The notes under the pieces are model-generated. The model had not been told where the DNA came from, searched no databases, and saw only the letters and a list, made by a program, of their open reading frames with translations. Source: Escherichia coli (GTDB lineage Bacteria > Pseudomonadota > Gammaproteobacteria > Enterobacterales > Enterobacteriaceae). Taken from it: DNA of 64,000 nt. Of this stretch, positions 9,230 to 55,477 are shown one piece after another (positions within the stretch are counted from its first letter, which is position 1; each line of letters starts with the position of its first letter). Position numbers and translations under genes: made by a program. The stretch lies in the NCBI RefSeq assembly GCF_002854065.1, contig NZ_CP024147.1; one strand, 5' to 3'.

Positions 9230-10105
9230 ATGAATAAACCTGACGGCCTTCAGGCCTTTGAACAACCGCTTGCGTCGCTTCCGTGCACACTTCGCCAGCT
9301 TATTCTTGAACGTATCCAGAACCTGACCCATTACGAGCCGGTGATTGGAATCATGGGCAAAAGTGGTACAGGTAAATCCTCTCTCTGCAACGAACTTTTC
9401 CGGGGCGAGGTGTCCCCGGTGAGTGACGTGAATGCCTGTACTCGCGACGTGCTGCGTTTCCGGTTACGCAGTGGGCGTCACAGCCTGGTGATTGTTGATT
9501 TACCGGGCGTGGGCGAAAACGGGCAGCGGGATCAAGAATACCGTGCCCTGTACCGTCGAATCCTGCCGGAGCTGGACCTGGTGCTGTGGGTCATTAAGGC
9601 CGATGATCGGGCACTAACCGTGGACGAGCAGTTCTGGCACGGTGTGATGCAAACTTACAGGCAAAAGGTACTGTTCGTGATTAACCAGGCCGACAAAATC
9701 GAACCCTGCCATGAATGGGATACCCTCACCAGCAAACCTTCACCGCACCAACTGGGAAATCTTAAAGCGAAGCAGGCTGCGATTATGGTGATGTTTAAAC
9801 CGCATCATCCGGTCTGTGTGGTGTCAGCCCGCACTGGATGGGGCATTGAGGAGATGGTGGCAGCCATGATGCGCTGTCTGCCTGACCGCGCCACCAGCCC
9901 GGTGGTGACACAACTGCACAGGAAACTCTGCACAGAGCCGGTAAAGTCGCAGGCTCGTGACAGTTTCGGTGAAGCTGTGGGCCGGGTTTTCGATACCGCA
10001 GAATCATCTTCGTTCCTGTCTACATCGCTGAAAACGGTGATTCGTAGCGTGCGTGATGCGGTGGTGTCGGTCGCACGGGCCGTCTGGGACTGGATATTCT
10101 TCTGA
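9230..10105 (+). CDS. Prophage-associated GTPase, YkfA/YfjP/YeeP family
   Basis: 291 aa; P-loop GKSGTGKSS and DLPG motif; this family is typical of CP4-type islands. Confidence 0.75.
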   Translation: MNKPDGLQAFEQPLASLPCTLRQLILERIQNLTHYEPVIGIMGKSGTGKSSLCNELFRGEVSPVSDVNACTRDVLRFRLRSGRHSLVIVDLPGVGENGQRDQEYRALYRRILPELDLVLWVIKADDRALTVDEQFWHGVMQTYRQKVLFVINQADKIEPCHEWDTLTSKPSPHQLGNLKAKQAAIMVMFKPHHPVCVVSARTGWGIEEMVAAMMRCLPDRATSPVVTQLHRKLCTEPVKSQARDSFGEAVGRVFDTAESSSFLSTSLKTVIRSVRDAVVSVARAVWDWIFF

Positions 10106-10348
10106 TATCGCAATTTTCTCTGCGAATGATGAACTTGTTGTTAATGATGTGTTGATTGTGGACACGTCCTTTCCATTGCGTTTTATCATCAACAAAATCA
10201 GGAGAAGCATCATTATCTGTCAGACGAGCGCTCACAAGGCCGGGCTGCTCATAAAAAATAGTTCCGATGTTGTCCATACCCTGTCCACCCCTTCCTTTAA
10301 AGTAATCATTATTAATTCAGAGAGTTAACTTCTCAGGAGAAATCTTTC

Positions 10349-11065
10349 ATGACGCTTCAGGAGCGGCGACATGACCGGCTTGCCGTCAGGTTGTCGTTGA
10401 TTATCAGCCGCCTGGTGTCCGGTGAAACTCTGTTTATTCGCAAACTGGCAACTGAATTCGGGGTGTCAGAGCGCACGTTACGTCGTGACTTTCGGGAACG
10501 TCTGATGTATCTCGACCTGGATTATTACCAGGGGCAGTGCAGTCTGCGCTCGGATATTCACAGTACGCGGCAGGAAATAGATATTCTGACCTTTGCTCAC
10601 CGTACGGGGCTGGCCGGGGTTTTCCCGGGCTTTGACCGGCGACTGGTCAGCAGCCTGCTGGACTGTGATGATCGACCCTGTCTGGTATGGCATCAGGACA
10701 GACCTCATCCCCCGGCAGGAAAGCTCTCCTTCTACAGGCTGGTCAGAGCTATTTCTGAATGTCAGCGCATCACCATTCTGACTGAAGGGGAGCGTCATGA
10801 GGCCGTTGCACCTTACCGGCTAATCGCTCTGGACGGTTACTGGTATCTGGTCGCTGAACATAACAGGCAATTACGTGTCTTCCGGCTGGATGAGATTCAT
10901 CTGGTAAGGCCATCGCGGGAAACATTTATTCGCAGTGAGCTTCTCTATCAGCTGTCGGAGGATAAACATTTTATCTCTGCCTTACCTCATTTCCGTTTTA
11001 TTCAGCAGTCGCTGAATTCATTTTCTCCCTCAGAAAGTCGGGGGCAATCCGGACAAACTGATTAG
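10349..11065 (+). CDS. WYL-domain transcriptional regulator, YfjR-like
   Basis: 238 aa; N-terminal HTH ([16 protein letters not shown]), C-terminal YWYL-containing segment ([11 protein letters not shown]). Confidence 0.7.
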
Positions 11066-11100
11066 AGATGGTCTCCATAATTAAATGTAAGGTTAATCTA

Positions 11101-11553
11101 ATGAAAGAATTGAAATTGTTGTCTTTACTGCCAGTCATATTGTTCCCCTTACTTATCGCAGGTAATGCTCACGCAGCACGTCCTTATAGCGGATTCCTGC
11201 CTGCAGCAGTGAATAATAAGAGTGGGAATATATTCTGGTGTGATGCCCACCGCCAGGTCAGAAAACTGTGTACAGCGACGGAAGTGGATTCAATGGGATG
11301 GTTTATTGTTGTTCGCTCGAAACCTTCCAGAGATTGTCCGGGGGGCCTTTGGGGGTGGATCACTCCCAGTAAAGACGATGTAGCAACAGGGTATACCATT
11401 ACGCCAGGTAAAGAATTCAATCTCACCATGAAGGATATGTGCAGTCCCGATATGAAAGTAACGTTCCGCCCGAATAAAAAGGACCCTCGTTATGACGATC
11501 TCGTCGGGATTTATGCAGGGAAAGAAGCTTTTCGCTACAAACAAATAAAATAA
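11101..11553 (+). CDS. Secreted or periplasmic hypothetical protein
   Basis: Signal-peptide-like N-terminus MKELKLLSLLPVILFPLLIAGNAHA; start taken at internal Met. Confidence 0.5.
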   Translation: MKELKLLSLLPVILFPLLIAGNAHAARPYSGFLPAAVNNKSGNIFWCDAHRQVRKLCTATEVDSMGWFIVVRSKPSRDCPGGLWGWITPSKDDVATGYTITPGKEFNLTMKDMCSPDMKVTFRPNKKDPRYDDLVGIYAGKEAFRYKQIK

Positions 11554-11624
11554 TCCAACTGTTTTTTCGTTACTTTATTGTTTTAAACAACAAAAGCCTT
11601 ATTACATGATTTGAGGACAACATT

Positions 11625-12098
11625 ATGCGACTGCCTTACGTAATATTTACATTAGCTATGCTGGCTTCTGTATCAACAGCACAGGCTATTCCCAATATGT
11701 GGACGAGTGGTTTTGGGATGGGCGTGACCGAATATATTATTACCAGCCCGGAGAAGGTGGTGTTTAATCTGAACTGTACTGGCAATCCGGATGCGCAGAA
11801 TATTCTGCAACACGGTGTTGATCTCACCCTGCCTGATGGAACATCAGTAAGCTCTCATGACGACGGAACGGAAATCACGGTCGTCATGGATAACAGTCAG
11901 TATCCGTTACCGTCATTCCTCGGCTGGCGAAACGGTGACAATGCCTGGGTGTCATTTATTGACGCCCTGAGCCAGTCTGCGAATTTTGATGTTTACGTCA
12001 ACGATAAAAAAGTCGGCACCTTCAGTCCGGGGCTGAAGAATACGCAGAAAGAGCTGTCTGACCTCAGTGAGTGCCGGACCACACACTACAGCGATTAG
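11625..12098 (+). CDS. Secreted or periplasmic hypothetical protein
   Basis: 157 aa; signal peptide MRLPYVIFTLAMLASVSTAQA; followed by a clear intrinsic terminator. Confidence 0.55.
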   Translation: MRLPYVIFTLAMLASVSTAQAIPNMWTSGFGMGVTEYIITSPEKVVFNLNCTGNPDAQNILQHGVDLTLPDGTSVSSHDDGTEITVVMDNSQYPLPSFLGWRNGDNAWVSFIDALSQSANFDVYVNDKKVGTFSPGLKNTQKELSDLSECRTTHYSD

Positions 12099-12153
12099 TT
12101 ACTTACATTTCAGACCTCTCCAGCCCGCTACGCACCAACACCAGATAGCAACA

Positions 12154-12190
12154 GGCCATGCTCCTTCGGGAACATGGCCTTTTTTGTTTT
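12154..12190 (+). terminator. Rho-independent terminator
   Basis: GGCCATGCTCCTTCGGGAACATGGCC hairpin followed by a T-run. Confidence 0.6.
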
Positions 12191-12218
12191 TATTTGATTA
12201 TCAGATAAGGAGTTAGCT

Positions 12219-13040
12219 ATGCGACTAGCCAGCCGCTTTGGCCGTATAAACCAGATACGCCGTGACCGGCCTCTGACCCACGAAGAGCTGATGAGTCATG
12301 TACCCAGCGTGTTCGGGAGTGACAAGCATGAATCTCGTTCAGACAGGTACACCTACATCCCGACCATCACCATCCTCGAAAGCCTGCAGCGGGAAGGCTT
12401 TGAGCCGTTCTTTGCCTGCCAGACAAAAGTTCGCGACCAGAGCAAGCGGGAGCACACCAAGCACATGCTTCGACTGCGTCGCTCCGGGCAACTGACCGGG
12501 CATCAGGTGCCGGAAATCATTCTACTTAACAGCCATGACGGCTCATCAAGCTACCAGATGCTGCCGGGCCTGTTTCGTGGCGTCTGTACCAACGGCCTGG
12601 TCTGCGGTCAGTCATTCGGAGAAGTGCGGGTACCGCATAAAGGGAATGTTGTCGAGAAGGTGATTGAAGGGGCTTACGAAGTGCTCGGTGTGTTTGACCG
12701 GGTGGAGGAGAAGCGCGATGCAATGCAGTCACTGGCACTGCCAGAACCAGCCCGTAACGCCCTGGCGAATGCCGCGCTGAAGTATCGCTTTGGTGAAGAC
12801 CACCAGCCGGTCACGGTATCGCAGTTGCTGACCCCACGTCGCCGGGAGGACTACAGCGATGACCTGTGGACCGTATACCAGCGCGTGCAGGAGAACCTGA
12901 TGAAAGGAGGTCTGTCAGGGCGAACCGCTCAGGGGAAAAGCAGCCGCACCCGTGCTGTTATCGGCATTGACGGCGATGTGAAACTCAATCGCGCCCTGTG
13001 GATTATGGCAGAAAACATGCTCGAATTTTTCGGGCGTTAA
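12219..13040 (+). CDS. DUF932-family protein (YfjQ/YafZ-like)
   Basis: 273 aa, the same length as the K-12 prophage paralogs; sequence resembles that family. Confidence 0.65.
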   Translation: MRLASRFGRINQIRRDRPLTHEELMSHVPSVFGSDKHESRSDRYTYIPTITILESLQREGFEPFFACQTKVRDQSKREHTKHMLRLRRSGQLTGHQVPEIILLNSHDGSSSYQMLPGLFRGVCTNGLVCGQSFGEVRVPHKGNVVEKVIEGAYEVLGVFDRVEEKRDAMQSLALPEPARNALANAALKYRFGEDHQPVTVSQLLTPRRREDYSDDLWTVYQRVQENLMKGGLSGRTAQGKSSRTRAVIGIDGDVKLNRALWIMAENMLEFFGR

Positions 13041-13070
13041 ACAACCGTTCCGGCATAAGGAGATAGTTTA

Positions 13071-13511
13071 ATGGATACCCACAACCCTGAGTTTGCTGAG
13101 CAGGCAGCAATTACTGCCTCGGTAGTCCCTGACGAGTTACGTATCGGCTTCTGGCCAAAGCGCTTTGGATCTATCCCACAATGGATAACCCTTGAGCCCC
13201 AAATATTTGGCTGGATGGATCGTCTGTGCGCTGATTACAGCGGCGGCGCCTGGAGCTTTTACACACTCAGCAACGGCGGCGCATTTATGGCTCCGGAGCC
13301 CGACGGTGAGAAGTGGACGTTGTTCAACCCGATGAATGGAAACGATGCGGAGATGAGCGGAGAGGCTGCCGGTATAGCGGCCTGCCTGATGGCATACAGC
13401 CACCACGCTTGTCGCACCGAATGTGACGCGATGACTGAGCACTATTATCGCTTACGTGACTACGCGCTAAACCATCCGGAATGCAGCGCCATTATGTATC
13501 TAATCGACTGA
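13071..13511 (+). CDS. Antirestriction protein, ArdB/KlcA family (YfjX/YafX-like)
   Basis: 146 aa; resembles the CP4-type antirestriction paralogs; position between DUF932 and RadC-like genes matches that module. Confidence 0.7.
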   Translation: MDTHNPEFAEQAAITASVVPDELRIGFWPKRFGSIPQWITLEPQIFGWMDRLCADYSGGAWSFYTLSNGGAFMAPEPDGEKWTLFNPMNGNDAEMSGEAAGIAACLMAYSHHACRTECDAMTEHYYRLRDYALNHPECSAIMYLID

Positions 13512-13523
13512 GGAATACCTGAC

Positions 13524-14066
13524 ATGAATATCGCATTATCCCCGGTATCATCGCAGCCTGAACTCTTTCCGCTGGCGGTTATGGCCCAGCATAGTTGCCT
13601 GCTCCCCGCGACCTCCGGATTGACACCTTATGCCCAACGGACCATTCGACGTGCTATCAACCTGCTGGATAAATATCTGCGCCAGCCCGGCATGTCCTTT
13701 ACCTCAAGCACGGCTGCCCGTGACTGGCTTCGGTTACAGCTGGCAGGACAAGAACGGGAAGTGTTTATGGTGCTCTATCTCGATAACCAGCACCGTTTAC
13801 TGGAGAGTGAAACGCTATTTGCCGGTTCGGTTAACCATGTCCAGGTCCATCCCCGTGAGGTGGTGAAGTCAGCGCTTCGCTTCAATGCTGCTGCTGTTGT
13901 GCTGGCGCATAACCATCCATCCGGTGATCCGGAGCCCAGCCAATGTGACCGCAACATTACGGGCAGGCTTAAAGAAGCGCTGGCACTGGTTGATGTGAAC
14001 ACTCTCGATCATCTGGTTATCGGTTCAGATGGAATTGTGTCGTTTGCAGAGCGAGGCTGGATATGA
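13524..14066 (+). CDS. RadC-like JAB-domain protein (YeeS/YfjY/YkfG family)
   Basis: HNHPSGDPEPS JAMM-like motif; start may be the internal Met at about 13581. Confidence 0.75.
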   Translation: MNIALSPVSSQPELFPLAVMAQHSCLLPATSGLTPYAQRTIRRAINLLDKYLRQPGMSFTSSTAARDWLRLQLAGQEREVFMVLYLDNQHRLLESETLFAGSVNHVQVHPREVVKSALRFNAAAVVLAHNHPSGDPEPSQCDRNITGRLKEALALVDVNTLDHLVIGSDGIVSFAERGWI

Positions 14067-14076
14067 GGGCACTTCA

Positions 14077-14418
14077 ATGAAATCTACTGACTCAGAGAAC
14101 GATTCATTTCTCAAGTGGGGTCTGAATCGTAATGTGACACCTTGCTTTGGCGCTCGTCTGGTACAGGAGGGAAACCGGCTGCACTATCTGGCTGACCGGG
14201 CCAGTATCACCGGTAAGTTCAGCGAAGCAGAATGTCTTAAGCTGGATATGGCATTCCCGCATTTTATTAGCCAGATGGAATCGATGCTGACTACTGGTGA
14301 AATGAATCCTCGCCATGCCCACTGTGTCACCCTGTACCACAATGGTTTCACCTGCGAAGCCGATACCCTTGGCAGTTGCGGCTACGTATACATCGCCGTT
14401 TACTCCACCCATCGTTAA
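14077..14418 (+). CDS. CbeA/YeeU/YfjZ-family antitoxin (type IV TA)
   Basis: 113 aa from internal Met; [23 protein letters not shown] is close to the YeeU sequence. Confidence 0.8.
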
Positions 14419-14438
14419 CTACTTTCACAAGAGCAAAT

Positions 14439-14780
14439 ATGAAAACTCTACCTGCAACAAATCCGCAGGCGGCGAAGCTATGTCTGTCGCCCGTGGCTGT
14501 CTGGCAAATGCTGCTTGCACGCCTGCTGGAACAACATTATGGCCTGACACTCAACGACACGCCATTCAGTGATGAAACGGTAATTCAGCAACATATCGAT
14601 GCCGGTATATCTTTGGCCGATGCCGTTAATTTTCTGGTGGAAAAGTACGGGCTGGTTCGTATTGATCGCAGGGGATTCGACTGGCAAGAACAGTCCCCAT
14701 ATCTGCGGGCAGTCGATATTCTGCGGGCGCGACAGGCAACTGGTTTATTGAAAAGAAATCGTATTAGCGCGGCACGGTGA
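14439..14780 (+). CDS. CbtA/YeeV/YkfI-family toxin (type IV TA)
   Basis: 113 aa from internal Met; directly follows the cognate antitoxin; sequence resembles the YeeV/YpjF family. Confidence 0.8.
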
Positions 14781-14783
14781 ATA

Positions 14784-15017
14784 TTGGGAATAGCCTTCCT
14801 GATTCACACTGCAGCTTTCCTTACTTATTTAATTTACTCATTCCAAAAAGCACCTGCCGATGCTGGTTGGTGCTTTTACTTATATGGACGAAATATCATG
14901 CAAATAGAAGCTGTAATTTTAACTGGGCACATTATCGCAAGTACAATCCGGGAATGCTGGGCCGTCGTTGTTGATGGTTTTGACGCATGCGGCGAACAAG
15001 CTTATGATCCAGCTTAA
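14784..15017 (+). CDS. Small hypothetical protein following the toxin (YeeW-like position)
   Basis: 77-aa ORF starting 4 bp after the toxin stop; coding status uncertain. Confidence 0.3.
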   Translation: MGIAFLIHTAAFLTYLIYSFQKAPADAGWCFYLYGRNIMQIEAVILTGHIIASTIRECWAVVVDGFDACGEQAYDPA

Positions 15018-15043
15018 TTTCTTTTCCTCATGAAGGGACGGGT

Positions 15044-16051
15044 ATGGGCAACAGAATGTGGATGATTCGCGGTGACGGCGGCAAGCTCTATGACGATTTT
15101 CGCGATAAGCAAATTGTAGGCATCGGTTGGTCTCAGCTGGCTCCATTAGTCAAACCCGGCCTGTCCCGAGCCCAGTTACTCGCCTTATACCAGGAGGCAG
15201 ATCCCTTAACAAAGCTGGGAACAGCCCGTTCTGGTGCATCGCAGGTCTGGCGTTTTGTGAATGAGATCCAAAAGGGTGATTGGGTTATTACCTATTCGCC
15301 AGCCAACCGTACTTATTTGCTAGGCAAAGTCACATCCGACTTCCAATATCATCCTGAATGGGTGGAAGAGGGGATGGGGATCGCTCGGCAGGTTAAATGG
15401 AATACTCAAGAAATCGACCGCGATAGACTGTCTGTTGCTACCAAAAACACATTGGGTTCTACGCTGACGGTTTTTCAGCTTCCAGAATATGCGCTAGAAG
15501 AGCTTTTGCAGGATAAGAAACCCACTATAGATGTAATTACTCAGAATCCAGTTGCAATGGATGAAGATGAGGTCGTTTCTGATCCGCTTCGCGATATGGA
15601 AATGCTGGCGTTTGAGGGTATCAAAGATCGTATTAACTCTCTTGATTGGGACGAGATGCAAAATCTTGTTGCCGGAGTTTTACGCAGTATGGGCTATAAA
15701 ACGCAGGTTTCACCTGCGGGAGCCGATCGGGGTAAAGACATCATTGCTTCACCTGATGGGTTCGGTTTTGAAAATCCGCGTATTATCGTTGAGGTAAAGC
15801 ACCGCAGGGAACAGATGGGAAGCCAACAGATACGCAGCTTTATCGGCGGTCGCCATAAAGACGATCGCGGGCTTTATGTCAGTACAGGGGGTTTTACGAA
15901 AGATGCTCGATATGAAGCCGACCGTTCGACGATACCACTGACGCTCTGGACACTTGATGATCTCGTCCGTGCGCTTATTGAGAACTACGAACAAGTTGAT
16001 ATCGAGACTAAACTTTTGGTGCCTCTGAAGAAAACTTTCCTGCCTGCCTGA
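15044..16051 (+). CDS. Mrr-cat (PD-(D/E)xK) restriction-endonuclease-like protein with an uncharacterised N-terminal domain
   Basis: C-terminal half matches the Mrr catalytic core pattern (GADRGKDIIA...IIVEVKHRRE...QQIRSFIGG...GLYVSTGGFTKDA); N-terminal ~160 aa does not look like the K-12 Mrr N-terminal domain. Confidence 0.65.
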   Translation: MGNRMWMIRGDGGKLYDDFRDKQIVGIGWSQLAPLVKPGLSRAQLLALYQEADPLTKLGTARSGASQVWRFVNEIQKGDWVITYSPANRTYLLGKVTSDFQYHPEWVEEGMGIARQVKWNTQEIDRDRLSVATKNTLGSTLTVFQLPEYALEELLQDKKPTIDVITQNPVAMDEDEVVSDPLRDMEMLAFEGIKDRINSLDWDEMQNLVAGVLRSMGYKTQVSPAGADRGKDIIASPDGFGFENPRIIVEVKHRREQMGSQQIRSFIGGRHKDDRGLYVSTGGFTKDARYEADRSTIPLTLWTLDDLVRALIENYEQVDIETKLLVPLKKTFLPA

Positions 16052-16211
16052 ATCTTGCTTTGATAGCCATATCGGTGTTCTACTGGTATGGCTTTATACC
16101 CACTTGCAATGTCTATTTTTTATACGGACTTTAACTTGTGGGTACAAGTGTGGGTATAACTATTTATTCCTATTTATAAACTGCATTGATATCAGTCTGT
16201 TAGGTGTGAAA

Positions 16212-16248
16212 TTCGAGTCCGGCCTTCGCACCTTCGCACCTTCGCACC
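16212..16248 (+). repeat. Degenerate tRNA 3' end repeat (leuX-like), probable island attR
   Basis: TTCGAGTCCGGCCTTCGCACC resembles the T-arm/acceptor 3' end of tRNA-Leu (leuX); TTCGCACC is triplicated and ends in CCA; no full tRNA is present. Confidence 0.55.
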
Positions 16249-16450
16249 ATCGGAACATCAATAGACATCAACGGACGTTTTTTTATGACTGAAATCCGCG
16301 CCACACAAGGCTTTTCGCTATTTTTCGCTCAACCTAAGTCAACCTACATCAACTTACTGATGTGGATACAGCTACAGCTGCGGCTATACCCCGATTCGAT
16401 AATGTTTGTACCCACACAAAACCCTTGAAAGGCTACAAGGCTGAAATTGT

Positions 16451-16669
16451 CTAAACCATAGAGATGATTTTTATGATCCAGTCTTTCTCTTGTTGAGATA
16501 GTTCCAGTTTGCTCACTCGTGTTAAGAAGGTATTGATCACCTGAACATCCGAATTGGTGAGCCTATTTAATAGAGCGGGTGGTATACCTTTACTAACAAT
16601 CGCTTTGCGGTGACTTTCGTAGTTTTTATTACTCATTGTTGATCCTAAAAAATCATTGTATGGCGGCAT
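16451..16669 (-). CDS. Small hypothetical protein (72 aa)
   Basis: ORF only; no recognisable motif. Confidence 0.3.
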   Translation of the reverse strand: MPPYNDFLGSTMSNKNYESHRKAIVSKGIPPALLNRLTNSDVQVINTFLTRVSKLELSQQEKDWIIKIISMV

Positions 16670-17014
16670 TGATCGTTTCCAGCAACCTTTACTTACTCAC
16701 TTCGAACTGCATCCTCGTAGACTGTTCCACTACAATAATCGAAAAGGCGCGGATGTCCATTCAGGTATCCCGCTAATACGTATAGCAATAACAATGGCTT
16801 ATGCGGCGCGCGCTGTTCACCCTTGTGCCAGATTTTTATATTGGCAATTGCCTGCTGTAGCGATTTACTGGAAGCTATTGATATCCCTGGCAGTGAAATA
16901 ATTGCGATCATGCTCGCAAATTTTCTGCTGTTCAAGCCTGCAAGTGAAGATATATTACCTTGATCTCATTTGTTTTTTTGCTGCCTGTTCTGAGAACGTA
17001 TAAGGACATTCTCC

Positions 17015-17665
17015 ATGAATAAACTCCCTGATCATCTTCCGCGGCGGTATATCATCGAAGCTATCCATTTATGGGATGCGGGAGAAACTCATCAGTTCCA
17101 GCCTGCGCGGTTGTATGAGATTGAATATCATGGCCGACGTTACCCCTCGAAGGCGATTGCTGGCATCGCAGCGACATTGATGACGGGGACGCAATTTACC
17201 CCTGCGGATTTCACCGGCGGAATAAAATCTAAATGTGTCAAGCTACTCATAGAGCAGGGATTTCATATTCATCTGGATAAAGCCGCTGCGGCTCCCATAG
17301 CCGACGTTCTGTTCCCGGATGAGTTGCCGTCGCAGGAGACATACCTTGAAGGTGCGGCGATAAAGGTGACAGTAAACCGCTATGAACGCGATAAAAAGGC
17401 CCGAGATAAAGCGGTCGAACATCATGGATGCCAGTGCAACGTATGCGGTGTTGATCTGGTGAAGATCTATGGTGATATCGCTGAAGGCTTTATCCATGTG
17501 CATCACCTGGTGCCGCTGTCAGCCATTAAAGAGGATTACCAGCTGGATCCAGTTAATGATTTGCTGCCTGTGTACCCTAATTGCCATGCGATGTTGCACC
17601 GACGCAAACCACCGTTTACGCCGGAGCAGTTAAAAGCGCTGATGGATGCGAATAAATCAAATTAA
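17015..17665 (+). CDS. HNH endonuclease-domain protein (McrA-like, putative type IV restriction nuclease)
   Basis: C-terminal HNH signature HHLVPLS...DLLPVYPNCHAMLH with upstream CQCNVCG zinc-binding pair; N-terminal ~110 aa uncharacterised. Confidence 0.65.
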   Translation: MNKLPDHLPRRYIIEAIHLWDAGETHQFQPARLYEIEYHGRRYPSKAIAGIAATLMTGTQFTPADFTGGIKSKCVKLLIEQGFHIHLDKAAAAPIADVLFPDELPSQETYLEGAAIKVTVNRYERDKKARDKAVEHHGCQCNVCGVDLVKIYGDIAEGFIHVHHLVPLSAIKEDYQLDPVNDLLPVYPNCHAMLHRRKPPFTPEQLKALMDANKSN

Positions 17666-47732: not shown

Positions 47733-49013
47733 CTATAAATTGCCGAGGGGGAACAAGGCCGGGAGCTGCGACAGCAAATACAAAATAAGTCCAATACAAC
47801 CGCCAACCAGCGTACCGTTGACACGGATAAACTGGAGATCTTTGCCGATATTTAACTCGATTTGCCGCGACATGTCCCGTGCGTCCCAGCTTTTTACCGT
47901 GTCGCTGATATGGCGAGTCAGGAATGCGGAAAACTCAGGCGCAATGCGGTGTGCGGCTTGTTCCAGATGACCATTTAACGACGCCCGCAAGGCATCATCG
48001 GCAATTAACGTTTCGCCAAACCATTGACCAGCCCGCGCGATACGTTCTTTCACACGAGAATCTTCACTGTTGATATCCGCTTTCAGCCATTCCCGTAAAT
48101 CCCCCCACAATTCACTGAGATAGCGGTTAAAAGCTTCATCTTCTTTCAGATAGCTTTTTACGGCATCGGCTCGCGCCGCCATTTCCGGATCGTTTTTCAG
48201 TTTCTCGATCAGGGCGAAGGTAGCGCGATCAAACGCATGGCGGATCTGATGCGCACGATCGCGGCTGATATCATCAAGCAAAGAATTCACCGCGTCAGAA
48301 ACCAACTCCGCGCTATGTTCGCCCAGCCATTCAGTGGGCAAAATTTTGGCTTTCAGTGGATGCTCGCTCTCCAGCCAGCGAACAATTTGCTGGGCAATAA
48401 ACTTGCGCGATTTATCGCGCTGGAGAAGGGCGATCAACTGTGCGATCAGCGTATCCAGCAGCACCTGATGACGATCGTTTTTAGTCATACTCTCCAGCAT
48501 CAACGCACTGGTGCCAGAAAGATCGACTTTATCAATCGCCCGGTGGACCGCGCGCTTAAGCAGGCGCTGAATACGCGCATCATCGGTTAGTTCAAGAAAA
48601 CCGCTCATGATCTGCAACAGATGCTGACCAACGCGGCGGGCGTTTTCTGGCTGACTAAACCAGTTGCCAATCAACAACGCCGGTTCGTGACGTCGAATCA
48701 ATGCCACCAGCGATTGGGTATCGAGAAATTTTTCCTGCACGAACTGGCCGAGATTTTCGCCAATCCGGTCTTTATTACGCGGAATAATCGCCGTATGACG
48801 AGAAATGATCGGAATCGGCACGCGGCGAAACAGCGCCACCACCGCAAACCAGTCCGCCAGCGCGCCGACCATCGCCGCTTCAGCAATCGCCTTCACGCCG
48901 CTCACCCAAAAATTGGGCGGCAAAAACAGCGTAACGACAAAGGTAGCAGCGGCGATAAGCAGTAAAGAGAGCGCCAACATTTTGGCGCGTCTGAGTTCAA
49001 TGAGTTTATTCAT
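47733..49013 (-). CDS. yjiN: YjiN (DUF445 membrane-associated protein)
   Basis: 426 aa from [22 protein letters not shown]. Confidence 0.85.
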
Positions 49014-49053
49014 AATGTTAAGAATAGAGCCTGACGGCAGGATCGCGCAAAAA

Positions 49054-50286
49054 TCACCGCTCCTCCGCCAGCTCGGCAGCCTGATGTTGGCGCACGCGAT
49101 TAAGCAATCCGGCCAGGGTGAAAACGACGATAACGCCTGCCACAACGGCTAACAGATGAAACGGCAAGCGACCGCTGTTAAACCACAGCCAGCGGCCGAT
49201 TTCGACCGAGACAGACATCACCATCAGGATCACCATATTCAGCGATGCGGAGACGGTCCCTTTCGGTAAGTTATTGGAAAACAGCGTAAAGCGGAATAAG
49301 GTCGGGAAAATCAAACCAATCCCGAAAGCATACAGACTGGTGCCCAGCACCGACCACAGCCAGACGTGCGGTGACAGCAGATTGCCGATAATCAACAGCG
49401 CGAGGCCAACCAGTTGAAGGGGTACGGCACGCCAGATAAAGCGCGGTTCGGTCGGATCTTTAACGAAACGCGCCACGATGGCATTCGCGACAATCACCGC
49501 GCCGAACACCGGAACCTGTGTCCAGGCGAACTGCGAAGTTGTTAAGCCGCCCGCGTCGATCAGGATCACCGGCGAGACAGCCACCCAACTCATCATGGGG
49601 ATATAGCTTAAAGAGATGGTTGCTGCGCCAAAGAGGAACAGCCGATTGCAAAAGACATTACGAAAATCGCGCAAGACGCTTTTGGCGCTAAATGGAACCG
49701 CGCCGCGCTTCACCGTCTCTGGCATCGCCAGCAGTAAGCCAACAAATGAGATAAAACCCATAACCGCAATGATGGCAAAAAGGACTTTCCAGTGCACAAA
49801 GTGCATCAGAGCTGCGCCGGAAAGCGGGCCAATAATCGGCGCAATCAGTACGATGGAGGTGATAATCGCCATCAACTTGATCCCTTTTGTCTGTCCGAAC
49901 GCCTCCTGCACCGTGACATAACCAACGGTGGCAATAAAACAGATACTGGTGCCCTGAATTGCACGCGCGATAAGAAACTGTGTCATAGACGTTGTGAACA
50001 TTGTCGCAGCGCAGGCAAGGGTAAATATTAGCGCCCCGGTAATCAGCACCGGCCTGCGGCCAACCCTGTCGGAAAGCGGCCCCAGCAGCCACTGCAATGC
50101 CATGCCTCCAGCGAGATAGAGACTGACGGCAGCCGGGGCCAGACTGACATCGGCATTAAAATCACGGACCACATTAATGATCCCTGGCTGGATCAGGTCC
50201 GTCGACAGATACGCAGCAAAGTCATACAAAATCAACGCCATCGGGAAAAACAGCGTGGCGGCATGGCGGGCAAAAAAACGTGGCAT
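49054..50286 (-). CDS. mdtM: MdtM (YjiO) multidrug MFS efflux transporter
   Basis: 410 aa from [14 protein letters not shown]. Confidence 0.9.
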
Positions 50287-50600
50287 AACAAACAACTCCT
50301 TGTCCGGAGAACCCCAATGGGGAAAACGAAATTCAATACCGTCGGTAATGACGAAAGGCAGGCGAGAAGGACAAATGTACTGAATTTCATGTAATCAACC
50401 ACACTGCCTGCGAATACACAGACAGAGAAATACCTTCTGACTCCAGGTCAGAATGTATAACGATTACAAATAGTCATCAGCACATTACACCTCTTTAATT
50501 GATGGCTTGCATAGAAAATATACACCTTAAGTGTAATTAAAATTTGGTAATGCTGCCAACTTACTGATTTAGTGTATGATGGTGATTTTAAGGTGCTTGC

Positions 50601-50876
50601 GTGGCTTCCATTTCCATCAGATGTCCTTCCTGCTCCACTACTGAAGGCGTGGTGCGTAACGGCAAAAGCACTGCCGGACATCAGCGCTATCTCTGCTCTC
50701 ATTGCCGTAAAACATGGCAACTACAGTTCACTTACACCGCCTCTCAGCCCGGTACGCACCAGAAAATCATTGATATGGCCATGAATGGCGTCGGATGTCG
50801 CGCCAGTGCACGCATTATGGGCGTTGGCCTCAACACGGTTTTACGTCACTTAAAAAACTCAGGCCGCAGTCGGTAA
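50601..50876 (+). CDS. insA: IS1 InsA (variant copy)
   Basis: 91 aa. Confidence 0.85.
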
Positions 50877-51298
50877 CCTCGCGCATACAACCGGGCAGTG
50901 ATGTGATTGTCTGCGCTGAAATGGACGAACAGTGGGGCTACGTCGGTGCTAAATCACGTCAGCGCTGGCTGTTTTACGCGTATGACAGGATACGGAGGAC
51001 GGTTGTGGCGCACGTCTTCGGTGAACGCACTCTGGCCACACTGGAGCGTCTTCTGAGCCTGCTGTCGGCCTTTGAGGTCGTAGTATAGATGACGGATGGC
51101 TGGCCGCTGTATGAATCACGCCTGAAGGGAAAGCTGCACGTTATCAGCAAGCGTTACACTCAGCGCATTGAGCGACATAACCTGAATCTGAGACAACATC
51201 TGGCAAGGCTGGGACGGAAGTCACTGTCGTTCTCAAAATCGGTGGAGCTGCATGACAAGGTCATCGGGCATTATCTGAACATAAAACACTATCAGTAA
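50795..51298 (+). pseudogene. insB: IS1 insB with in-frame TAG (TGG to TAG) splitting the ORF
   Basis: ORF breaks at 51086..51088 (VVV-stop, then MTDGWPLY) where the fimH copy reads [12 protein letters not shown]. Confidence 0.8.
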
Positions 51299-51496
51299 GT
51301 TGGAGTCATTACCCGACAGCGAGGTGTTTAGTGTGCCATGTCAGGCGAGAAATTCTATTGGATGAATCAAGTCCAACTTACTCATTGTCAATTTCATGGT
51401 TGATTATTCGAAACGTGATGCTATTTCCAACATCAACGCTATAATTGCAGAATAATTGTAGATACATTTTTGTATATACAATTAGGGATGGCAATT

Positions 51497-51784
51497 ATGC
51501 CAATGGAGTTTGAATGGGATGAAAACAAGGCCAAAAGTAATCGGGTGAAACATGGCATCCGCTTTGAAGATGCGGTGTTATTGTTTGATGATCCACAACA
51601 TTTGTCACAGCAAGAACGCATAGAAAACGGTGAGTATCGCTGGCAGACAATCGGCCTGGTTTACGGCATCGTGGTTATTCTGGTTGCGCATACCATCCGT
51701 TTCGAAAGCGGAAATGAAATTATTCGAATCATCAGTGCACGAAAAGCAGATCGTAAAGAGAGGAATCGCTATGAGCATGGTTAA
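51497..51784 (+). CDS. BrnT-like (DUF497) toxin
   Basis: MPMEFEWDENKAKSNRVKHGIRFEDAVLLFDD matches the BrnT/DUF497 N-terminal pattern; overlaps downstream gene. Confidence 0.7.
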   Translation: MPMEFEWDENKAKSNRVKHGIRFEDAVLLFDDPQHLSQQERIENGEYRWQTIGLVYGIVVILVAHTIRFESGNEIIRIISARKADRKERNRYEHG

Positions 51785-52073
51785 ACATAAACGAGGGACC
51801 TCCTCTACACTCGATGTGCAGCATGAGGCCGAACTGAAGGCGCTGACGAATAAATCCGACGAAGATATTGATTACAGTGATATCCCACCTTCCAGCGATG
51901 AGCAATGGTCTAACGCCGAACGCGGTAAGTTTTATCGGCCATTGAAAACTCAGGCTTCGGTGCGTATTGATGCTGATGTGATGGAATGGTTGAAGCGACC
52001 AGGTAAAGGCTATCAAACTCGCCTGAACGCAATTTTACGTGAAGCGATGCTGCGCGATCAGAACAAAAAATAA
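51771..52073 (+). CDS. BrnA-like antitoxin (ribbon-helix-helix C-terminus)
   Basis: About 100 aa from Met at 51771; C-terminal KTQASVRIDADVMEWLKRPGKGYQTRLNAILREAM resembles BrnA; overlaps the toxin gene by about 14 bp. Confidence 0.65.
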   Translation: MSMVKHKRGTSSTLDVQHEAELKALTNKSDEDIDYSDIPPSSDEQWSNAERGKFYRPLKTQASVRIDADVMEWLKRPGKGYQTRLNAILREAMLRDQNKK

Positions 52074-52106
52074 TTCAGGCCGCCACATGGCGGCCATCAT
52101 CCAAAA

Positions 52107-53063
52107 TTACTTCCTCAACCCCGCAAACGCTGCCCGAATCTCTTCCTCCGGCAACTGAATCCCGATAAACACCATTGTGCTATGCGGTTTTTCATCGCCC
52201 CACGGGCGGTCCCAGTCGGCGCTGTAGAGGCGCTGGACGCCCTGGAACAGCAGGCGGTTAGGTTCGCCGTCAATCCACAGCATCCCTTTGTAACGCAGCA
52301 GTTTATCTGCCGATTCCAGAAGCAGGTTTTCCATCACCCGGGAAACTTCGCTGATATCTACCGGGTAATCCAGTTCCACCACAATCGACGAAATATCGTT
52401 TTGTTTATCCGCGATAAAGTGGAAACGCGGTTTGGTGCTGACGACGTTCTCTTCCAGCATAAAACCGTTGGTGTTGAACAGCAGGCCCAGGTCGATGTCG
52501 CCGTGGGTGACGGTGTAGACCGGTGCACGGGCGTTGATGCGCGCCAGGCGTTCACGCAGTTTTTCTGCTTCGCCTGCGACGTCGGTTTTGGTCAGCAGAA
52601 TACGGTCGGCGTAGCCAACCTGGGACTGGGCGATGGTGAACTGGTTCATCTGCTCGTCGGCATGTACCGCATCCACCAGCGCAATCACACCGTCCAGCAG
52701 GTAACGCTGGCATAAAATCTCATGGGAGAAAAAGGTCTGAATAATCGGGCCGGGATCGGCCATGCCGGTGCATTCAATGACCAGACGGTCAAACTGAATA
52801 TTGCCCTTGTCGAGATTATCCAGCAGGTCGAGTAGTGCGTCTTCCAGCTCGTTGGAGCGCGAACAGCAGATGCAGCCGTTGGTCAGCGTTTTGATCTGCG
52901 TGGCGCGGTCGCCAATTAGTTGATCATCAACGGAGACTTCGCCGAATTCGTTTTCAATCACGGCAATCTTGTAGCCGTGTTGTTCGTTAAGAATATGGCG
53001 CAGCAGGGTGGTTTTTCCCGCGCCTAAAAAACCGGTGAGTAGGGTAACTGCAATCGGGTTCAT
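52107..53063 (-). CDS. yjiA: YjiA, CobW/P47K-family GTPase (zinc chaperone-like)
   Basis: 318 aa from MNPIAVTLLTGFLGAGKTTLL; CxCC motif GCICCS. Confidence 0.9.
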   Translation of the reverse strand: MNPIAVTLLTGFLGAGKTTLLRHILNEQHGYKIAVIENEFGEVSVDDQLIGDRATQIKTLTNGCICCSRSNELEDALLDLLDNLDKGNIQFDRLVIECTGMADPGPIIQTFFSHEILCQRYLLDGVIALVDAVHADEQMNQFTIAQSQVGYADRILLTKTDVAGEAEKLRERLARINARAPVYTVTHGDIDLGLLFNTNGFMLEENVVSTKPRFHFIADKQNDISSIVVELDYPVDISEVSRVMENLLLESADKLLRYKGMLWIDGEPNRLLFQGVQRLYSADWDRPWGDEKPHSTMVFIGIQLPEEEIRAAFAGLRK

Positions 53064-53073
53064 GCTCTCTCCA

Positions 53074-53277
53074 TTAACAACAGCGCATACCGCCTTTACC
53101 ATCGCCGCCGTAGCGCGCGTTCTGGCGTTCGCGGAAGAATTCTTCATAGCTCATGTACGGCTTGTCGGGATGGTTGGTCTTCATATGCTCGACGTAGTTG
53201 TCGTAGTCTGGAATGCCAATCAACATCTTTGCCGCCTGGCCGAGATATTTTTTTGCCTGTCCTAAGTTACCAAACAT
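53074..53277 (-). CDS. yjiX: YjiX (DUF466) small protein
   Basis: 67 aa, matches YjiX; cotranscribed with btsT. Confidence 0.85.
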
Positions 53278-53326
53278 AGTTCACTCTGATAAGAACAAAG
53301 CCCCGCCGAAGCGGGGCTAAACACGG

Positions 53327-55477
53327 TTAGTGGTGCGAAGAGATCTTCACGCCGCCTTCCGGGATTGGAACGTACGGTGTTTCTTTGTCAGTACGTTTGT
53401 CGCTGTTACGCACCGCAAGCCAGGTTTTGAAACCGTAGAAGATGATGCTGTACACCACAATCAGGAACAGAATACTCAGGCCCGCGTTGGTGTAGTTGTT
53501 CACAACGATGTGGTTCATGTTGGCAATCTGCTGCGCCGTCAGGTCAGTACCGTTAGCAATCTTCTCTTTGTACTGGCTTGCCATGTAGAAGAAGCCTTCC
53601 ATCTGCGGGTTGGTGCTGAACAGTTTCAGACCCAGCGCCCAGGTGGTGCAGATAAGCAGCCATACAGCCGGAACAACAGTTACCCAGATGTATTGGGTGC
53701 GCTTCATCTTAATCAGCACAACGGTGCCCAGTACCAGCGCTACGGCTGCCAGCATCTGGTTGGAGATACCGAACAGCGGCCACAGGCTCTTAACGCCGCC
53801 CAGCGGATCGACCACGCCCTGATACAGCAGGTAGCCCCACAGACCCACACAGCCCGCAGTACCGATGATACCGGCAACCAGAGAGTCGGTTTTTTTCAGG
53901 AATGGGATGAAGTTACCCAGCAGGTCTTGCAGCATAAAGCGGCCAGAACGGGTACCCGCATCCAGCGCGGTCAGGATGAACAGGGCTTCGAACAGAATAC
54001 CGAAGTGATACCAGAAGCCCATGTCAGCCATCGGCAGCACTTTGTGGAACACATGAGCGATACCTACCGCCAGCGTCGGCGCACCACCTGCACGGTTCAG
54101 GACAGAAGGCTCACCAATGTCTTTCGCGGTTTGCAGGATCTGCTCTGGCGAAATCACGAAGCCCCAGGAGCTGACGGTCGCCGCCGCGTGTGCGGTAACG
54201 TCTTTCAGCTGCGCCATGATGATCGGCGCGTTCTCGCCACCCATTTCATGCAGGTTAGGCATGGTGATGCCAAGGCCCGCAGGCGGGGTATTCATCGCGA
54301 AGTAAAGACCCGGTTCGATGATGGACGCAGCAACCAGCGCCATAATCGCCACGAAGGACTCCATCAGCATTGCGCCGTAGCCAATGAAACGCGCGTCGGT
54401 TTCGTTAGCCAGCAGTTTCGGCGTCGTACCGGAAGAGATCAGCGCGTGGAAGCCAGATACCGCACCACAGGCGATGGTGATGAACAGGAACGGGAACAGA
54501 GCGCCTTTCCACAGCGGGCCAGTACCGTCAATGTACTGGGTCATCGCAGGCATTTTCAGTTCCGGGTTCAGCACCACGATACCCAGCGCCAGGCCGACGA
54601 TAACGCCGATTTTCAGGAAGGTTGCCAGATAGTCGCGCGGTGCGAGGATCAGCCACACCGGCAGCAGTGCGGAAACAAACGCATAGCCAATCAGCGCGAA
54701 GGTAATGGTGGTGTCTTTAAAGGTCAGTGCCGGACCCCAGTACGGATCGTGAGCAATCACGCCACCGAAGTAGATAGAGGCAACCAGCAGCACGATACCA
54801 ATGACAGAGACTTCACCCACACGCCCCGGACGGATAAAGCGCATGTAGATACCCATAAACAGCGCAATCGGTACGGTTGAGCAAACGGTGAAGACACCCC
54901 ACGGACTTTCGGCCAGGGCTTTAACCACAATCAGCGCCAGGACGGCGAGGATGATGATCATGATTAAGAAACAGCCAAACAGCGCGATAGTCCCCGGTAC
55001 TGGTCCCATCTCTTCTTTGATCATCTCACCAAGAGATGCGCCATTACGGCGAGAGGAGATAAACAGCACCATAAAGTCCTGAACCGCACCGGCCAGCACG
55101 ACCCCCGCCAGCAGCCACAGCGTGCCAGGCAGGTAGCCCATCTGCGCGGCGAGAACCGGACCCACCAGCGGACCAGCACCGGCGATAGCGGCGAAGTGGT
55201 GACCAAACAACACGTAACGGTTGGTCGGAACGTAGTTCAGACCGTCGTTGTTAATAACCGCAGGCGTCGCGCGCGTGGGGTCGAGTTTCATCACCTTCTG
55301 GGCGATGTACAGACTGTAGTAGCGATACGCCACCAGATACACCGACACAGAGGCGACCACGATCCACAGGGCGCTGACGTGCTCCCCCCGACGTAATGCA
55401 ACTACCGCGAGGCAGAATGCACCGATGATTCCGAGAATCACCCAGGGTATGTGCTTGAATATCTTTTTAGTATCCAT
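53327..55477 (-). CDS. btsT: BtsT (YjiY) pyruvate/H+ symporter, CstA family
   Basis: 716 aa from MDTKKIFKHIPWVILG. Confidence 0.9.
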   Translation of the reverse strand: MDTKKIFKHIPWVILGIIGAFCLAVVALRRGEHVSALWIVVASVSVYLVAYRYYSLYIAQKVMKLDPTRATPAVINNDGLNYVPTNRYVLFGHHFAAIAGAGPLVGPVLAAQMGYLPGTLWLLAGVVLAGAVQDFMVLFISSRRNGASLGEMIKEEMGPVPGTIALFGCFLIMIIILAVLALIVVKALAESPWGVFTVCSTVPIALFMGIYMRFIRPGRVGEVSVIGIVLLVASIYFGGVIAHDPYWGPALTFKDTTITFALIGYAFVSALLPVWLILAPRDYLATFLKIGVIVGLALGIVVLNPELKMPAMTQYIDGTGPLWKGALFPFLFITIACGAVSGFHALISSGTTPKLLANETDARFIGYGAMLMESFVAIMALVAASIIEPGLYFAMNTPPAGLGITMPNLHEMGGENAPIIMAQLKDVTAHAAATVSSWGFVISPEQILQTAKDIGEPSVLNRAGGAPTLAVGIAHVFHKVLPMADMGFWYHFGILFEALFILTALDAGTRSGRFMLQDLLGNFIPFLKKTDSLVAGIIGTAGCVGLWGYLLYQGVVDPLGGVKSLWPLFGISNQMLAAVALVLGTVVLIKMKRTQYIWVTVVPAVWLLICTTWALGLKLFSTNPQMEGFFYMASQYKEKIANGTDLTAQQIANMNHIVVNNYTNAGLSILFLIVVYSIIFYGFKTWLAVRNSDKRTDKETPYVPIPEGGVKISSHH

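Follow-up and report, generated by a model that had tools for sequence, protein, structure and literature searches.

A widespread restriction-less allele of the Escherichia coli immigration control region, probably derived from an IS1F-associated deletion that left brnTA in place

The interval between mdtM and yjiA, which in Escherichia coli K-12 holds ytiE, rpnD, yjiR, yjiS, yjiT, yjiV, mcrCB, symE/symR, hsdSMR and mrr, is occupied in the DNA analysed here by an IS1 and an overlapping two-gene module, as the initial annotation proposed and as the ORF list, the raw sequence and the comparison with K-12 confirmed. This raises the question of how an immigration control region (ICR), a cassette-like hypervariable island with yjiN/mdtM and yjiA as its anchors (PMC12707154), came to be without its restriction genes. 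The best explanation, which we hold to be highly probable, is that a widespread restriction-less ICR allele arose by an IS1F-associated deletion of ~11.3 kb that left brnTA in place.

The whole stretch analysed (64,000 nucleotides, hereafter the window) carries mdtM on the minus strand at 49054-50286, an ORF whose PGAP name was taken from the 99.9%-identical sequence L001, with coordinates obtained via alignment. The conserved framework DNA upstream of mdtM (50287-50545, from blastn endpoints) is followed on the plus strand by an IS1F-type insertion sequence of 768 bp (50546-51313), the complete and intact 183-bp upstream region of brnTA (51314-51496, delimited by comparison with other loci), and the genes brnT (51497-51784) and brnA (51771-52073). 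yjiA, the right framework gene of the ICR, lies on the minus strand at 52107-53063 (PGAP and K-12 alignment). Between the convergent brnA and yjiA there is a GC-rich hairpin of seven G-C pairs (52078-52095), which, judged by its match to a terminator-like consensus alone, is likely a bidirectional terminator. Homology to K-12 ends at position 50546 on the left and starts again at 52107 on the right. Annotation and alignments thus place the variable segment between the mdtM and yjiA anchors, as in the definition of the ICR, and the same two neighbours are found in the PGAP annotation of near-identical genomes.

None of the restriction or modification genes by which an ICR is also recognised (type I hsd, mcrBC, mrr, gmrSD) is present between these anchors. 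A tblastn search with K-12 and B2-type ICR proteins (E<=1e-3) found no hsd, mcr or mrr homologue in the 64-kb window, which bears out the initial view that the classical restriction systems are missing from the locus; intact restriction genes just outside the interval, which a different gene order might have placed there, were looked for and are absent too. The Gabija system, the Mrr-like gene and the HNH gene that had been noted elsewhere are all located upstream in the window. The locus is a restriction-less null allele of the ICR, encoding no restriction or modification function. Null alleles of this kind are common, because a type I system is present in only 36% of enterobacterial ICRs (PMC12707154).

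The insertion sequence has 23-nt imperfect terminal inverted repeats (50546-50568 and 51291-51313, 87% complementary) and an A6C programmed -1 frameshift motif at 50852-50858, which links the insA and insB frames. The insA ORF (50601-50876, plus strand, 91 aa, GTG start) occupies the same position within the element as K-12 insA7, and the insB frame (50795-51298, plus strand), delimited by translation against IS1A, is interrupted by a TAG codon. The NCBIfam model transpos_IS1 matches both ORF fragments, each of which alone falls below the 100-bit whole-protein cut-off. The element had been described as a divergent IS1; it is simply an IS1F, 99.1% identical to that of K-12 and 90.9% identical to IS1A. 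The reported TGG-to-TAG nonsense change in insB is real: TAG stands at 51086-51088, where IS1A has TGG, and the PGAP annotation treats the element as a pseudogene (internal stop). From these reading frames, full-length InsAB' transposase cannot be made from this copy.

The same TAG base is found in K-12 IS1F and in L001, L003, L005 and L007, with TGG in L006. The K-12 copy, the insA7/insB7 pseudogene adjoining fecIR, is also 768 bp long and differs in lying at another chromosomal site, whereas the window copy would be the scar of a ~11.3-kb deletion and has no target duplication. By these comparisons the nonsense codon belongs to the IS1F lineage and is not private decay, and this lineage-wide codon is the reason why IS1F is without a transposase of its own. 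The TAG is common to IS1F copies at other loci, and is therefore uninformative on decay at the ICR site. IS1F copies with the common nonsense codon lie at several loci, namely fecIR, hemY-aslA and the ICR, and one would formerly have lain at yghX.

A simple IS1 insertion is expected to leave a duplication of ~9 bp. The left flank of the element reads ...GTAATTAAAATTT and the right flank CGACAGCGAGGTG... (short tags …TAAAATTT and CGACAGCGA…), and the junction print-out contains no direct repeat of 8-14 bp. The absence of a target-site duplication, already noted from the sequence, therefore held on re-inspection of both junctions. Strain Ec-91 served as the positive control: an independent IS1 in its copy of the region is flanked by a clean duplication of 9 bp, TTGAATGGG. 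The missing duplication is no argument against identity as an IS1, because the deletion would be its cause.

The breakpoints were located by comparing the junction with other E. coli, using as references for the missing segment IS-free E. coli in which brnTA adjoins yjiA (L004, L015). Window positions 49000-50546 align to 7185-8731 of L004 and 1077-2623 of L015, and positions 51314-53500 align to 20001-22187 and 14001-16187, respectively, non-adjacent to the left block. The left blastn endpoint (window 50546, corresponding to 4791 of L002, 8731 of L004 and 2623 of L015) is exactly the left end of the IS1, base 50546 (G) being common to the flank and the element. The IS1 stands exactly in place of 11,269 bp of L004 and 11,377 bp of L015. 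The missing ~11.3 kb contains rpn/yjiP, yjiR, yjiS, symE, a type I hsdR-S-M system and an Mrr-like nuclease gene, and PADLOC recognised in the parental-type cassette the R, S and M subunits of a type I system, together with a PDC-S02 protein that is Mrr-like. In B2 and other E. coli (L004, L015, L016) these genes form the cassette rpn-yjiR-yjiS-symE-hsdR-hsdS-hsdM-Mrr-like-brnT-brnA, with framework, brnTA and upstream DNA like those of the window (97-98.6% identity). This B2-type cassette is the presumed parent, from which the window allele differs in having 11.3 kb swapped for IS1F. The comparison backs the IS1-mediated deletion or rearrangement that had been suggested, and these alignments support an IS1-associated deletion as the origin of the arrangement in the window.

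The right-hand junction, between IS1 and the DNA upstream of brnT, is present in 1,111 of 5,426 complete E. coli genomes (~20%). The left junction exists in two forms, the exact junction of the window in 449 of these genomes and a second allele in 663, in which 273 bp of the distant yghW-yghX locus abut the IS1. The two forms sum to 1,112 against the 1,111 right junctions, which argues for one old right-hand junction. The presumed insertion point of IS1F in yghX would have the flank sequence …GGAATCCG|. The yghW-yghX allele is beyond the reach of a simple adjacent deletion, which indicates that recombination involving IS1 also acted at the element. The allele is thus real but ordinary, with all three of its genes annotated by PGAP and about one-fifth of complete genomes carrying it. 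VTB96935v, the genome closest to the left part of the window, was rejected as a single complete genome matching all of it, having a different ICR with pac.

The ancestral ICR, as reconstructed from present-day relatives, would have comprised mdtM, rpn(yjiP), yjiR, yjiS, symE, hsdR-hsdS-hsdM, the Mrr-like nuclease gene, brnT, brnA and yjiA. IS1F would have occupied a site 14 bp ahead of the Mrr-like gene's start codon, within a divergent promoter region common to that gene and brnTA; the precursor junction on the start side of the Mrr-like gene would read …CTTAACGACAGCGA|GGTAATGCTGCC. An IS1-associated deletion would then have extended from the left end of the element to ~250 bp upstream of mdtM, removing roughly 11.3 kb and leaving a single IS1 without a target duplication. 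In classical IS1-promoted adjacent deletions, such as those of the gal region, one end of the IS1 stays fixed and the opposite flank is lost without a duplication. The event in the window resembles these deletions in all three respects, and differs from them in being ancient, in being fixed in many lineages with a transposase gene that is now defective, and in that recombination between two IS1 copies is also conceivable. Since the IS1F lineage has no working transposase, a transposase-catalysed deletion would require that the element had once been intact or that it was helped in trans. Inheritance from an ancestor or homologous replacement of this region is the most likely way in which the strain gained the allele, given that about 1,100 complete genomes share the junction.

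Synthetic junction queries against the 5,426 complete genomes recovered neither of two precursors, one with IS1F at the brnT-upstream site together with the CGACAGCGA duplication and restriction genes, and one with IS1F at the mdtM-upstream site (…TAAAATTT|G) and an intact downstream ICR. Ec-91, the sole partial match, was rejected as an unrelated, recent IS1 insertion inside brnT. As neither precursor turned up, the order of events is a reconstruction. The exact breakpoints and the shared right junction are observed; the mechanism may have been an adjacent deletion catalysed by transposase or else recombination with another IS1 copy.

The latter route would be a RecA-dependent recombination between two IS1F copies in direct repeat, located upstream of mdtM and of brnT, respectively, leaving one hybrid IS1 with flanks that derive from two separate insertion sites. 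We regard it as a serious possibility, though with somewhat less than an even chance of being correct. It yields the same end product, one IS1 without a duplication, and calls for no transposase, which fits the lineage-wide nonsense codon in insB; the yghW'-yghX' sister allele, moreover, is most easily explained by intra-IS1 recombination with DNA bearing IS1F in yghX. IS1F would, however, have had to insert twice, independently and in the same orientation, and an IS1 at either site beside an otherwise intact ICR or its restriction genes was seen in 0 of 5,426 genomes.

What the deletion left beside yjiA is a pair of genes that overlap by 14 nt, with the toxin gene first, the order listed for the BrnT/BrnA family (PMC11980606). 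Among the toxin-antitoxin systems recorded for the ICR is brnAT (PMC12707154). BrnT (95 aa, intact; PGAP 'BrnT family toxin') matches Pfam BrnT_toxin PF04365, formerly DUF497, over model positions 1-77 of 77 (E=4.7e-24), and BrnA (100 aa; PGAP 'BrnA antitoxin family protein') matches the ribbon-helix-helix family BrnA_antitoxin PF14384 over positions 1-68 of 68 (E=3.1e-17), so that the DUF497 and ribbon-helix-helix identities first assigned to the pair stand. The two proteins are ~85% identical to a solved toxin-antitoxin complex, PDB 7VD7 (BrnT to 7VD7_A, E=4e-52; BrnA to 7VD7_B, E=4.9e-16), for which the literature search found no citing paper. BrnT also matches Brucella BrnT (3U97, E=1.6e-4), and its residues D8, E9, K11, R48 and E88 align with D6, E7, K9, R41 and E78, which are needed for the RNase activity of the Brucella toxin (PMC5086665). 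The E. coli pair thus shares with Brucella BrnTA and 7VD7 the Pfam families, toxin-first overlapping genes, the D/E/K/R/E residues and a C-terminal ribbon-helix-helix antitoxin, but the similarity to the Brucella toxin is weak and the E. coli pair is known here from its sequence.

By homology, brnTA is predicted to be a type II toxin-antitoxin module, with BrnT belonging to the RelE/BECR-fold ribonuclease family. By analogy with the Brucella system, BrnT would be a small ribonuclease that blocks translation, and BrnA would bind and neutralise it and probably repress the operon through its ribbon-helix-helix domain at an upstream palindrome. A palindrome with 14-nt arms at 51453-51484, upstream of brnT, is a candidate BrnA operator. 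The promoter scan of the plus strand gave no match to the sigma-70 consensus for brnTA, and Rfam had no matches in the window. A 14-mer resembling an IS1 end also lies within the brnTA upstream region, at 51373-51386.

Could the pair instead be a decaying, functionless remnant, carried along as a passenger of the deletion? No NCBIfam model matches brnT or brnA, and neither do the PADLOC defence-protein models, even at E<=1; truncated copies of brnTA occur in some genomes, Ec-91 included; and brnT differs between the window and the B2 allele by five non-synonymous and two synonymous codons, too few to show purifying selection. Against decay, both ORFs remain unbroken in each of the alleles examined, with complete Pfam coverage, all five catalytic residues are retained, at least 80% of the module is kept in 1,780 genomes, and the 183-bp upstream region has no mismatch to the IS1-bearing L001, L003, L006 and L007 (three mismatches to the IS-free L004). 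A closely similar protein pair has, moreover, been crystallised as a toxin-antitoxin complex. A remnant is accordingly quite improbable. It is also unlikely, if slightly less so, that BrnTA is a functional core that outlasted the loss of the restriction genes, or, as a separate reading, that a transposase-dead IS1F is mobilised in trans at several loci. BrnTA could be an addiction module, holding the ICR in place at its yjiA-proximal end and restricting the reach of deletions, or it could be a stand-alone abortive-infection defence, a phage-triggered RNase absent from defence catalogues.

The allele of the window can be set beside other restriction-poor forms of the island. Sibley and Raleigh reportedly described the ICR of E. 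coli C in 2004 as an 'empty site'. In E. coli C, W and Crooks/ATCC 8739 the same locus is without functional hsdRMS, mcrBC and mrr (PMC3032704). E. coli C keeps rpn-yjiR-yjiS and has in addition an hsdR fragment and a DUF262 gene; Crooks/ATCC 8739 has an IS3 inside its type I system and GmrSD/DUF262 genes; and W-type alleles carry the penicillin G acylase gene (pac). IS1F and brnTA are absent from all three. The window allele, unlike that of E. coli C, has lost even the 'framework' genes yjiP, yjiR and yjiS, and its identification with the E. coli C 'empty site' or with the IS-altered ICR of Crooks/ATCC 8739 was ruled out by both locus sequences. The breakpoint alignments also effectively refute a plain IS1 insertion into an ancestrally empty mdtM-brnTA-yjiA locus, with an eroded duplication and restriction cassettes as later insertions, an account that nothing specific favours beyond the possibility in principle of duplication decay and that we consider extremely improbable: in IS-free relatives the two flanks correspond to sites separated by 11.3 kb, and homology stops exactly at both IS1 ends, the 13 bases on each side are without similarity while the flanking DNA is 96-98% conserved, and an IS-free genome joining both flanks was not seen among the matches inspected.

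The IS1F-associated deletion of the ICR has several implications. For users of this strain, the classical ICR gives no EcoKI-type, McrBC or Mrr restriction, which is relevant to transformation and phage work. If true, the presence of nonsense-bearing IS1F copies at several loci would mean that a transposase-dead IS1 is routinely mobilised in trans. That brnTA persists unbroken where the deletion ends is a modest pointer to a possible defence or island-stabilising role. The locus illustrates, cleanly and in nature, how an IS1-associated deletion would have removed a whole cassette of type I and type IV restriction genes together with yjiP, yjiR and yjiS, and the resulting restriction-less allele has since reached about one-fifth of the E. 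coli that have been sequenced.

The immigration control region (ICR) between mdtM and yjiA is the textbook case of a hypervariable E. coli defence island, and in K-12 it carries ytiE, rpnD, yjiR, yjiS, yjiT, yjiV, mcrCB, symE/symR, hsdSMR and mrr. In the window, homology to K-12 stops at 50546 and restarts at 52107. Reading of the window placed mdtM (49054-50286, minus strand) next to 259 bp of mdtM-upstream DNA (50287-50545), a 768-bp IS1 (50546-51313, plus strand), a 183-bp spacer (51314-51496), brnT (51497-51784, plus strand), brnA (51771-52073, plus strand, overlapping brnT by 14 nt), a GC-rich hairpin (52078-52095) and yjiA (52107-53063, minus strand). The PGAP annotation of genomes 99.6-99.9% identical here gives mdtM, an 'IS1 family transposase' (pseudogene, internal stop), a 'BrnT family toxin', a 'BrnA antitoxin family protein' and yjiA, and together with the window reading and the K-12 comparison it confirms the coordinates and description of the mdtM-yjiA interval in the initial annotation.

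All four IS1F-free examples inspected share one common cassette, consisting of mdtM, rpn, yjiR, yjiS, symE, hsdR, hsdS, hsdM, a 'restriction endonuclease', brnT, brnA and yjiA. PADLOC assigned the 'restriction endonuclease' to the Mrr-like PDC-S02 / type IV nucleases, and hsdR, hsdS and hsdM to the R, S and M subunits of type I systems. In strain R12, yjiN and rpn lie without mdtM between them, and mdtM is therefore not a universal anchor of the ICR. Aligned to IS1F-free loci, the window forms two blocks with ends exactly at both IS1 ends, the element replacing 11,269 bp of one such locus (L004) and 11,377 bp of another (L015); the left breakpoint lies ~207 bp upstream of rpn and the right breakpoint 14 bp upstream of the Mrr-like gene start codon. 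This structure is what would be expected of IS1-associated deletion, a classical mechanism, and the break of both alignments at the IS1 ends supports the earlier proposal of an IS1-mediated event. The lack of a target-site duplication also held on re-inspection, as the flanks (…GTAATTAAAATTT-IS1-CGACAGCGAGGTG…) share no repeat. A simple insertion in this region looks different: in strain Ec-91 an unrelated IS1 (L008 14356-15123), which shares 93% identity with that of the window, interrupts the 5' end of brnT ~200 bp further to the right and is flanked by a clean 9-bp duplication (TTGAATGGG), the type I / Mrr-like / brnTA cassette being intact otherwise.

A 14-mer 59 bp right of the IS1 (CCAACTTACTCATT, 51373-51386), found in IS-free alleles too, matches the IS1 left inverted repeat core at 13/14 positions; it may be due to chance, with ~0.5 such pairs expected in the region, or may act as a target determinant (IS1-end-like or IHF-like).

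The element has 23-nt terminal inverted repeats, with insA at 50601-50876 and an A6C frameshift motif at 50852-50858. It had been called a divergent IS1 but is simply IS1F (99.1% identity to the K-12 IS1F, only 90.9% to IS1A). The reported TGG-to-TAG nonsense change relative to IS1A is present at 51086-51088, where it ends the insB frame. The same TAG occurs in the K-12 IS1F near fecIR (L011 1973-2740), whose insB7 is annotated as a pseudogene, in the IS1F between hemY and aslA of strain NT1F10 (L005 12007-12774) and in the ICR IS1F copies of four other genomes examined. Its presence at other loci as well as in ICR copies marks it as a trait of the IS1F lineage rather than decay at this site, and indicates that a transposase-defective IS1 lineage occupies several sites, either by mobilisation in trans or by spread of the mutation through conversion. 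The ICR copy of L006, a locus of the sister allele, has TGG and three more IS1A-type bases across positions 542-636, a pattern resembling a patch of gene conversion. In the 30 best-matching complete genomes the ICR IS1 aligns over one base less than the 768 bp of the window (1,900 of 1,901), the missing base being IS position 465 in both copies checked (L001 and L003), and no complete genome was identical to the window over 50250-52150 (top match 99.8%).

Among 5,426 complete E. coli genomes, brnTA adjoins yjiA in 2,112, and the right junction, between the IS1 end and the brnT upstream region, is present in 1,111. The left junction of the window was found in 449 and an alternative left junction in 663, giving a total of 1,112; that a single right junction pairs with two left ones marks the IS1-brnT side as the older, fixed one. 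A 273-bp stretch copied from the distant yghW-yghX locus (L006 7110-7382, and L007), comprising the yghW 5' end, the intergenic region and the yghX 3' end, precedes the IS1 of the alternative allele. This copy joins mdtM in frame at codon 9 through a 7-bp microhomology (CGGCATG), so that mdtM acquires the yghW N-terminus and upstream region. The chimera, which belongs to the sister allele and lies outside the window, possibly arose through homology-facilitated illegitimate recombination with DNA bearing IS1F in yghX.

The deletion may have involved either transposase-catalysed adjacent deletion by IS1F or recombination between two IS1F copies, which stand about equal; the dead IS1F transposase and the yghX-derived sister allele both give real weight to recombination. 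Searches of the 5,426 complete genomes with synthetic junctions recovered no duplication-bearing precursor for either junction site, and the last step is therefore not confidently assignable to either route.

The retained pair has the BrnT/BrnA-like (DUF497 and ribbon-helix-helix) identity first assigned to it: BrnT matches Pfam BrnT_toxin (PF04365, formerly DUF497) over the full model (4.7e-24), BrnA matches BrnA_antitoxin (PF14384, 3.1e-17), and the pair is ~85% identical to both chains of 7VD7, a toxin-antitoxin complex of solved structure. No PADLOC or NCBIfam model matched either protein. BrnT shows distant similarity to its Brucella counterpart (PDB 3U97), in which D6, E7, K9, R41 and E78 are reported as needed for RNase activity (PMC5086665); these align with D8, E9, K11, R48 and E88 of the window protein. 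By analogy, E. coli BrnT would be a translation-blocking ribonuclease, with BrnA neutralising and co-repressing it. Both ORFs are intact across all alleles examined, and no base of the 183-bp upstream region varies across the four IS1-bearing comparison loci, with three differences from the IS-free form. A near-perfect palindrome with 14-nt arms (TAATTGTAGATACA / TGTATATACAATTA, 51453-51484), 13 bp before the brnT start codon, is a plausible candidate operator for the ribbon-helix-helix antitoxin BrnA.

Searches of the 64-kb window by tblastn with all K-12 and B2-type ICR proteins gave no match, including just outside the compared interval, in agreement with the earlier view that the classical restriction systems of this locus appear to be absent. 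The other systems proposed to sit elsewhere were located in an island forming the first 17.7 kb. It encodes a complete Gabija system (5086-8674; GajA, 6890-8674, and GajB, 5086-6903/7005, both minus strand; PADLOC E-values 6e-234 and 2e-258 for the pair), and its 9230-17665 part holds a YeeP-like GTPase, an antirestriction gene, radC, a YeeU/CbtA toxin-antitoxin pair, an Mrr-like PDC-S02 nuclease gene (15044-16051), a remnant of a phosphorothioate-dependent nuclease and an HNH endonuclease (17015-17665). The complete genome best matching window 1-22000, VTB96935v (99.1%), has a different ICR with rpn, yjiR, yjiS, penicillin G acylase and yjiA, which shows independent assortment of these two neighbouring islands.

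A 2025 review of 8,424 enterobacterial ICRs found type I systems in only 36%, and named brnAT, symE/symR and rpn as toxin-antitoxin systems accompanying type I families (PMC12707154). E. coli C, W and Crooks are known to have restriction-less ICRs (PMC3032704). The window does not carry the E. coli C or Crooks allele, which was ruled out by gene content: the former has rpn, yjiR, yjiS, an hsdR fragment and a DUF262 gene, and the latter an IS3-disrupted type I system with GmrSD/DUF262 genes. No paper explicitly describing the IS1F-brnTA allele or its origin was found, yet every component is annotated in >1,000 RefSeq genomes, among them that of the 2008 reference strain E24377A. The ICR of the window is a common null allele, annotated before, at a locus where just such variation is well known, and fresh leads are limited to a possible role of brnTA in defence or stabilisation, the spread of the transposase-dead IS1F and the yghW-mdtM chimera of the sister allele.
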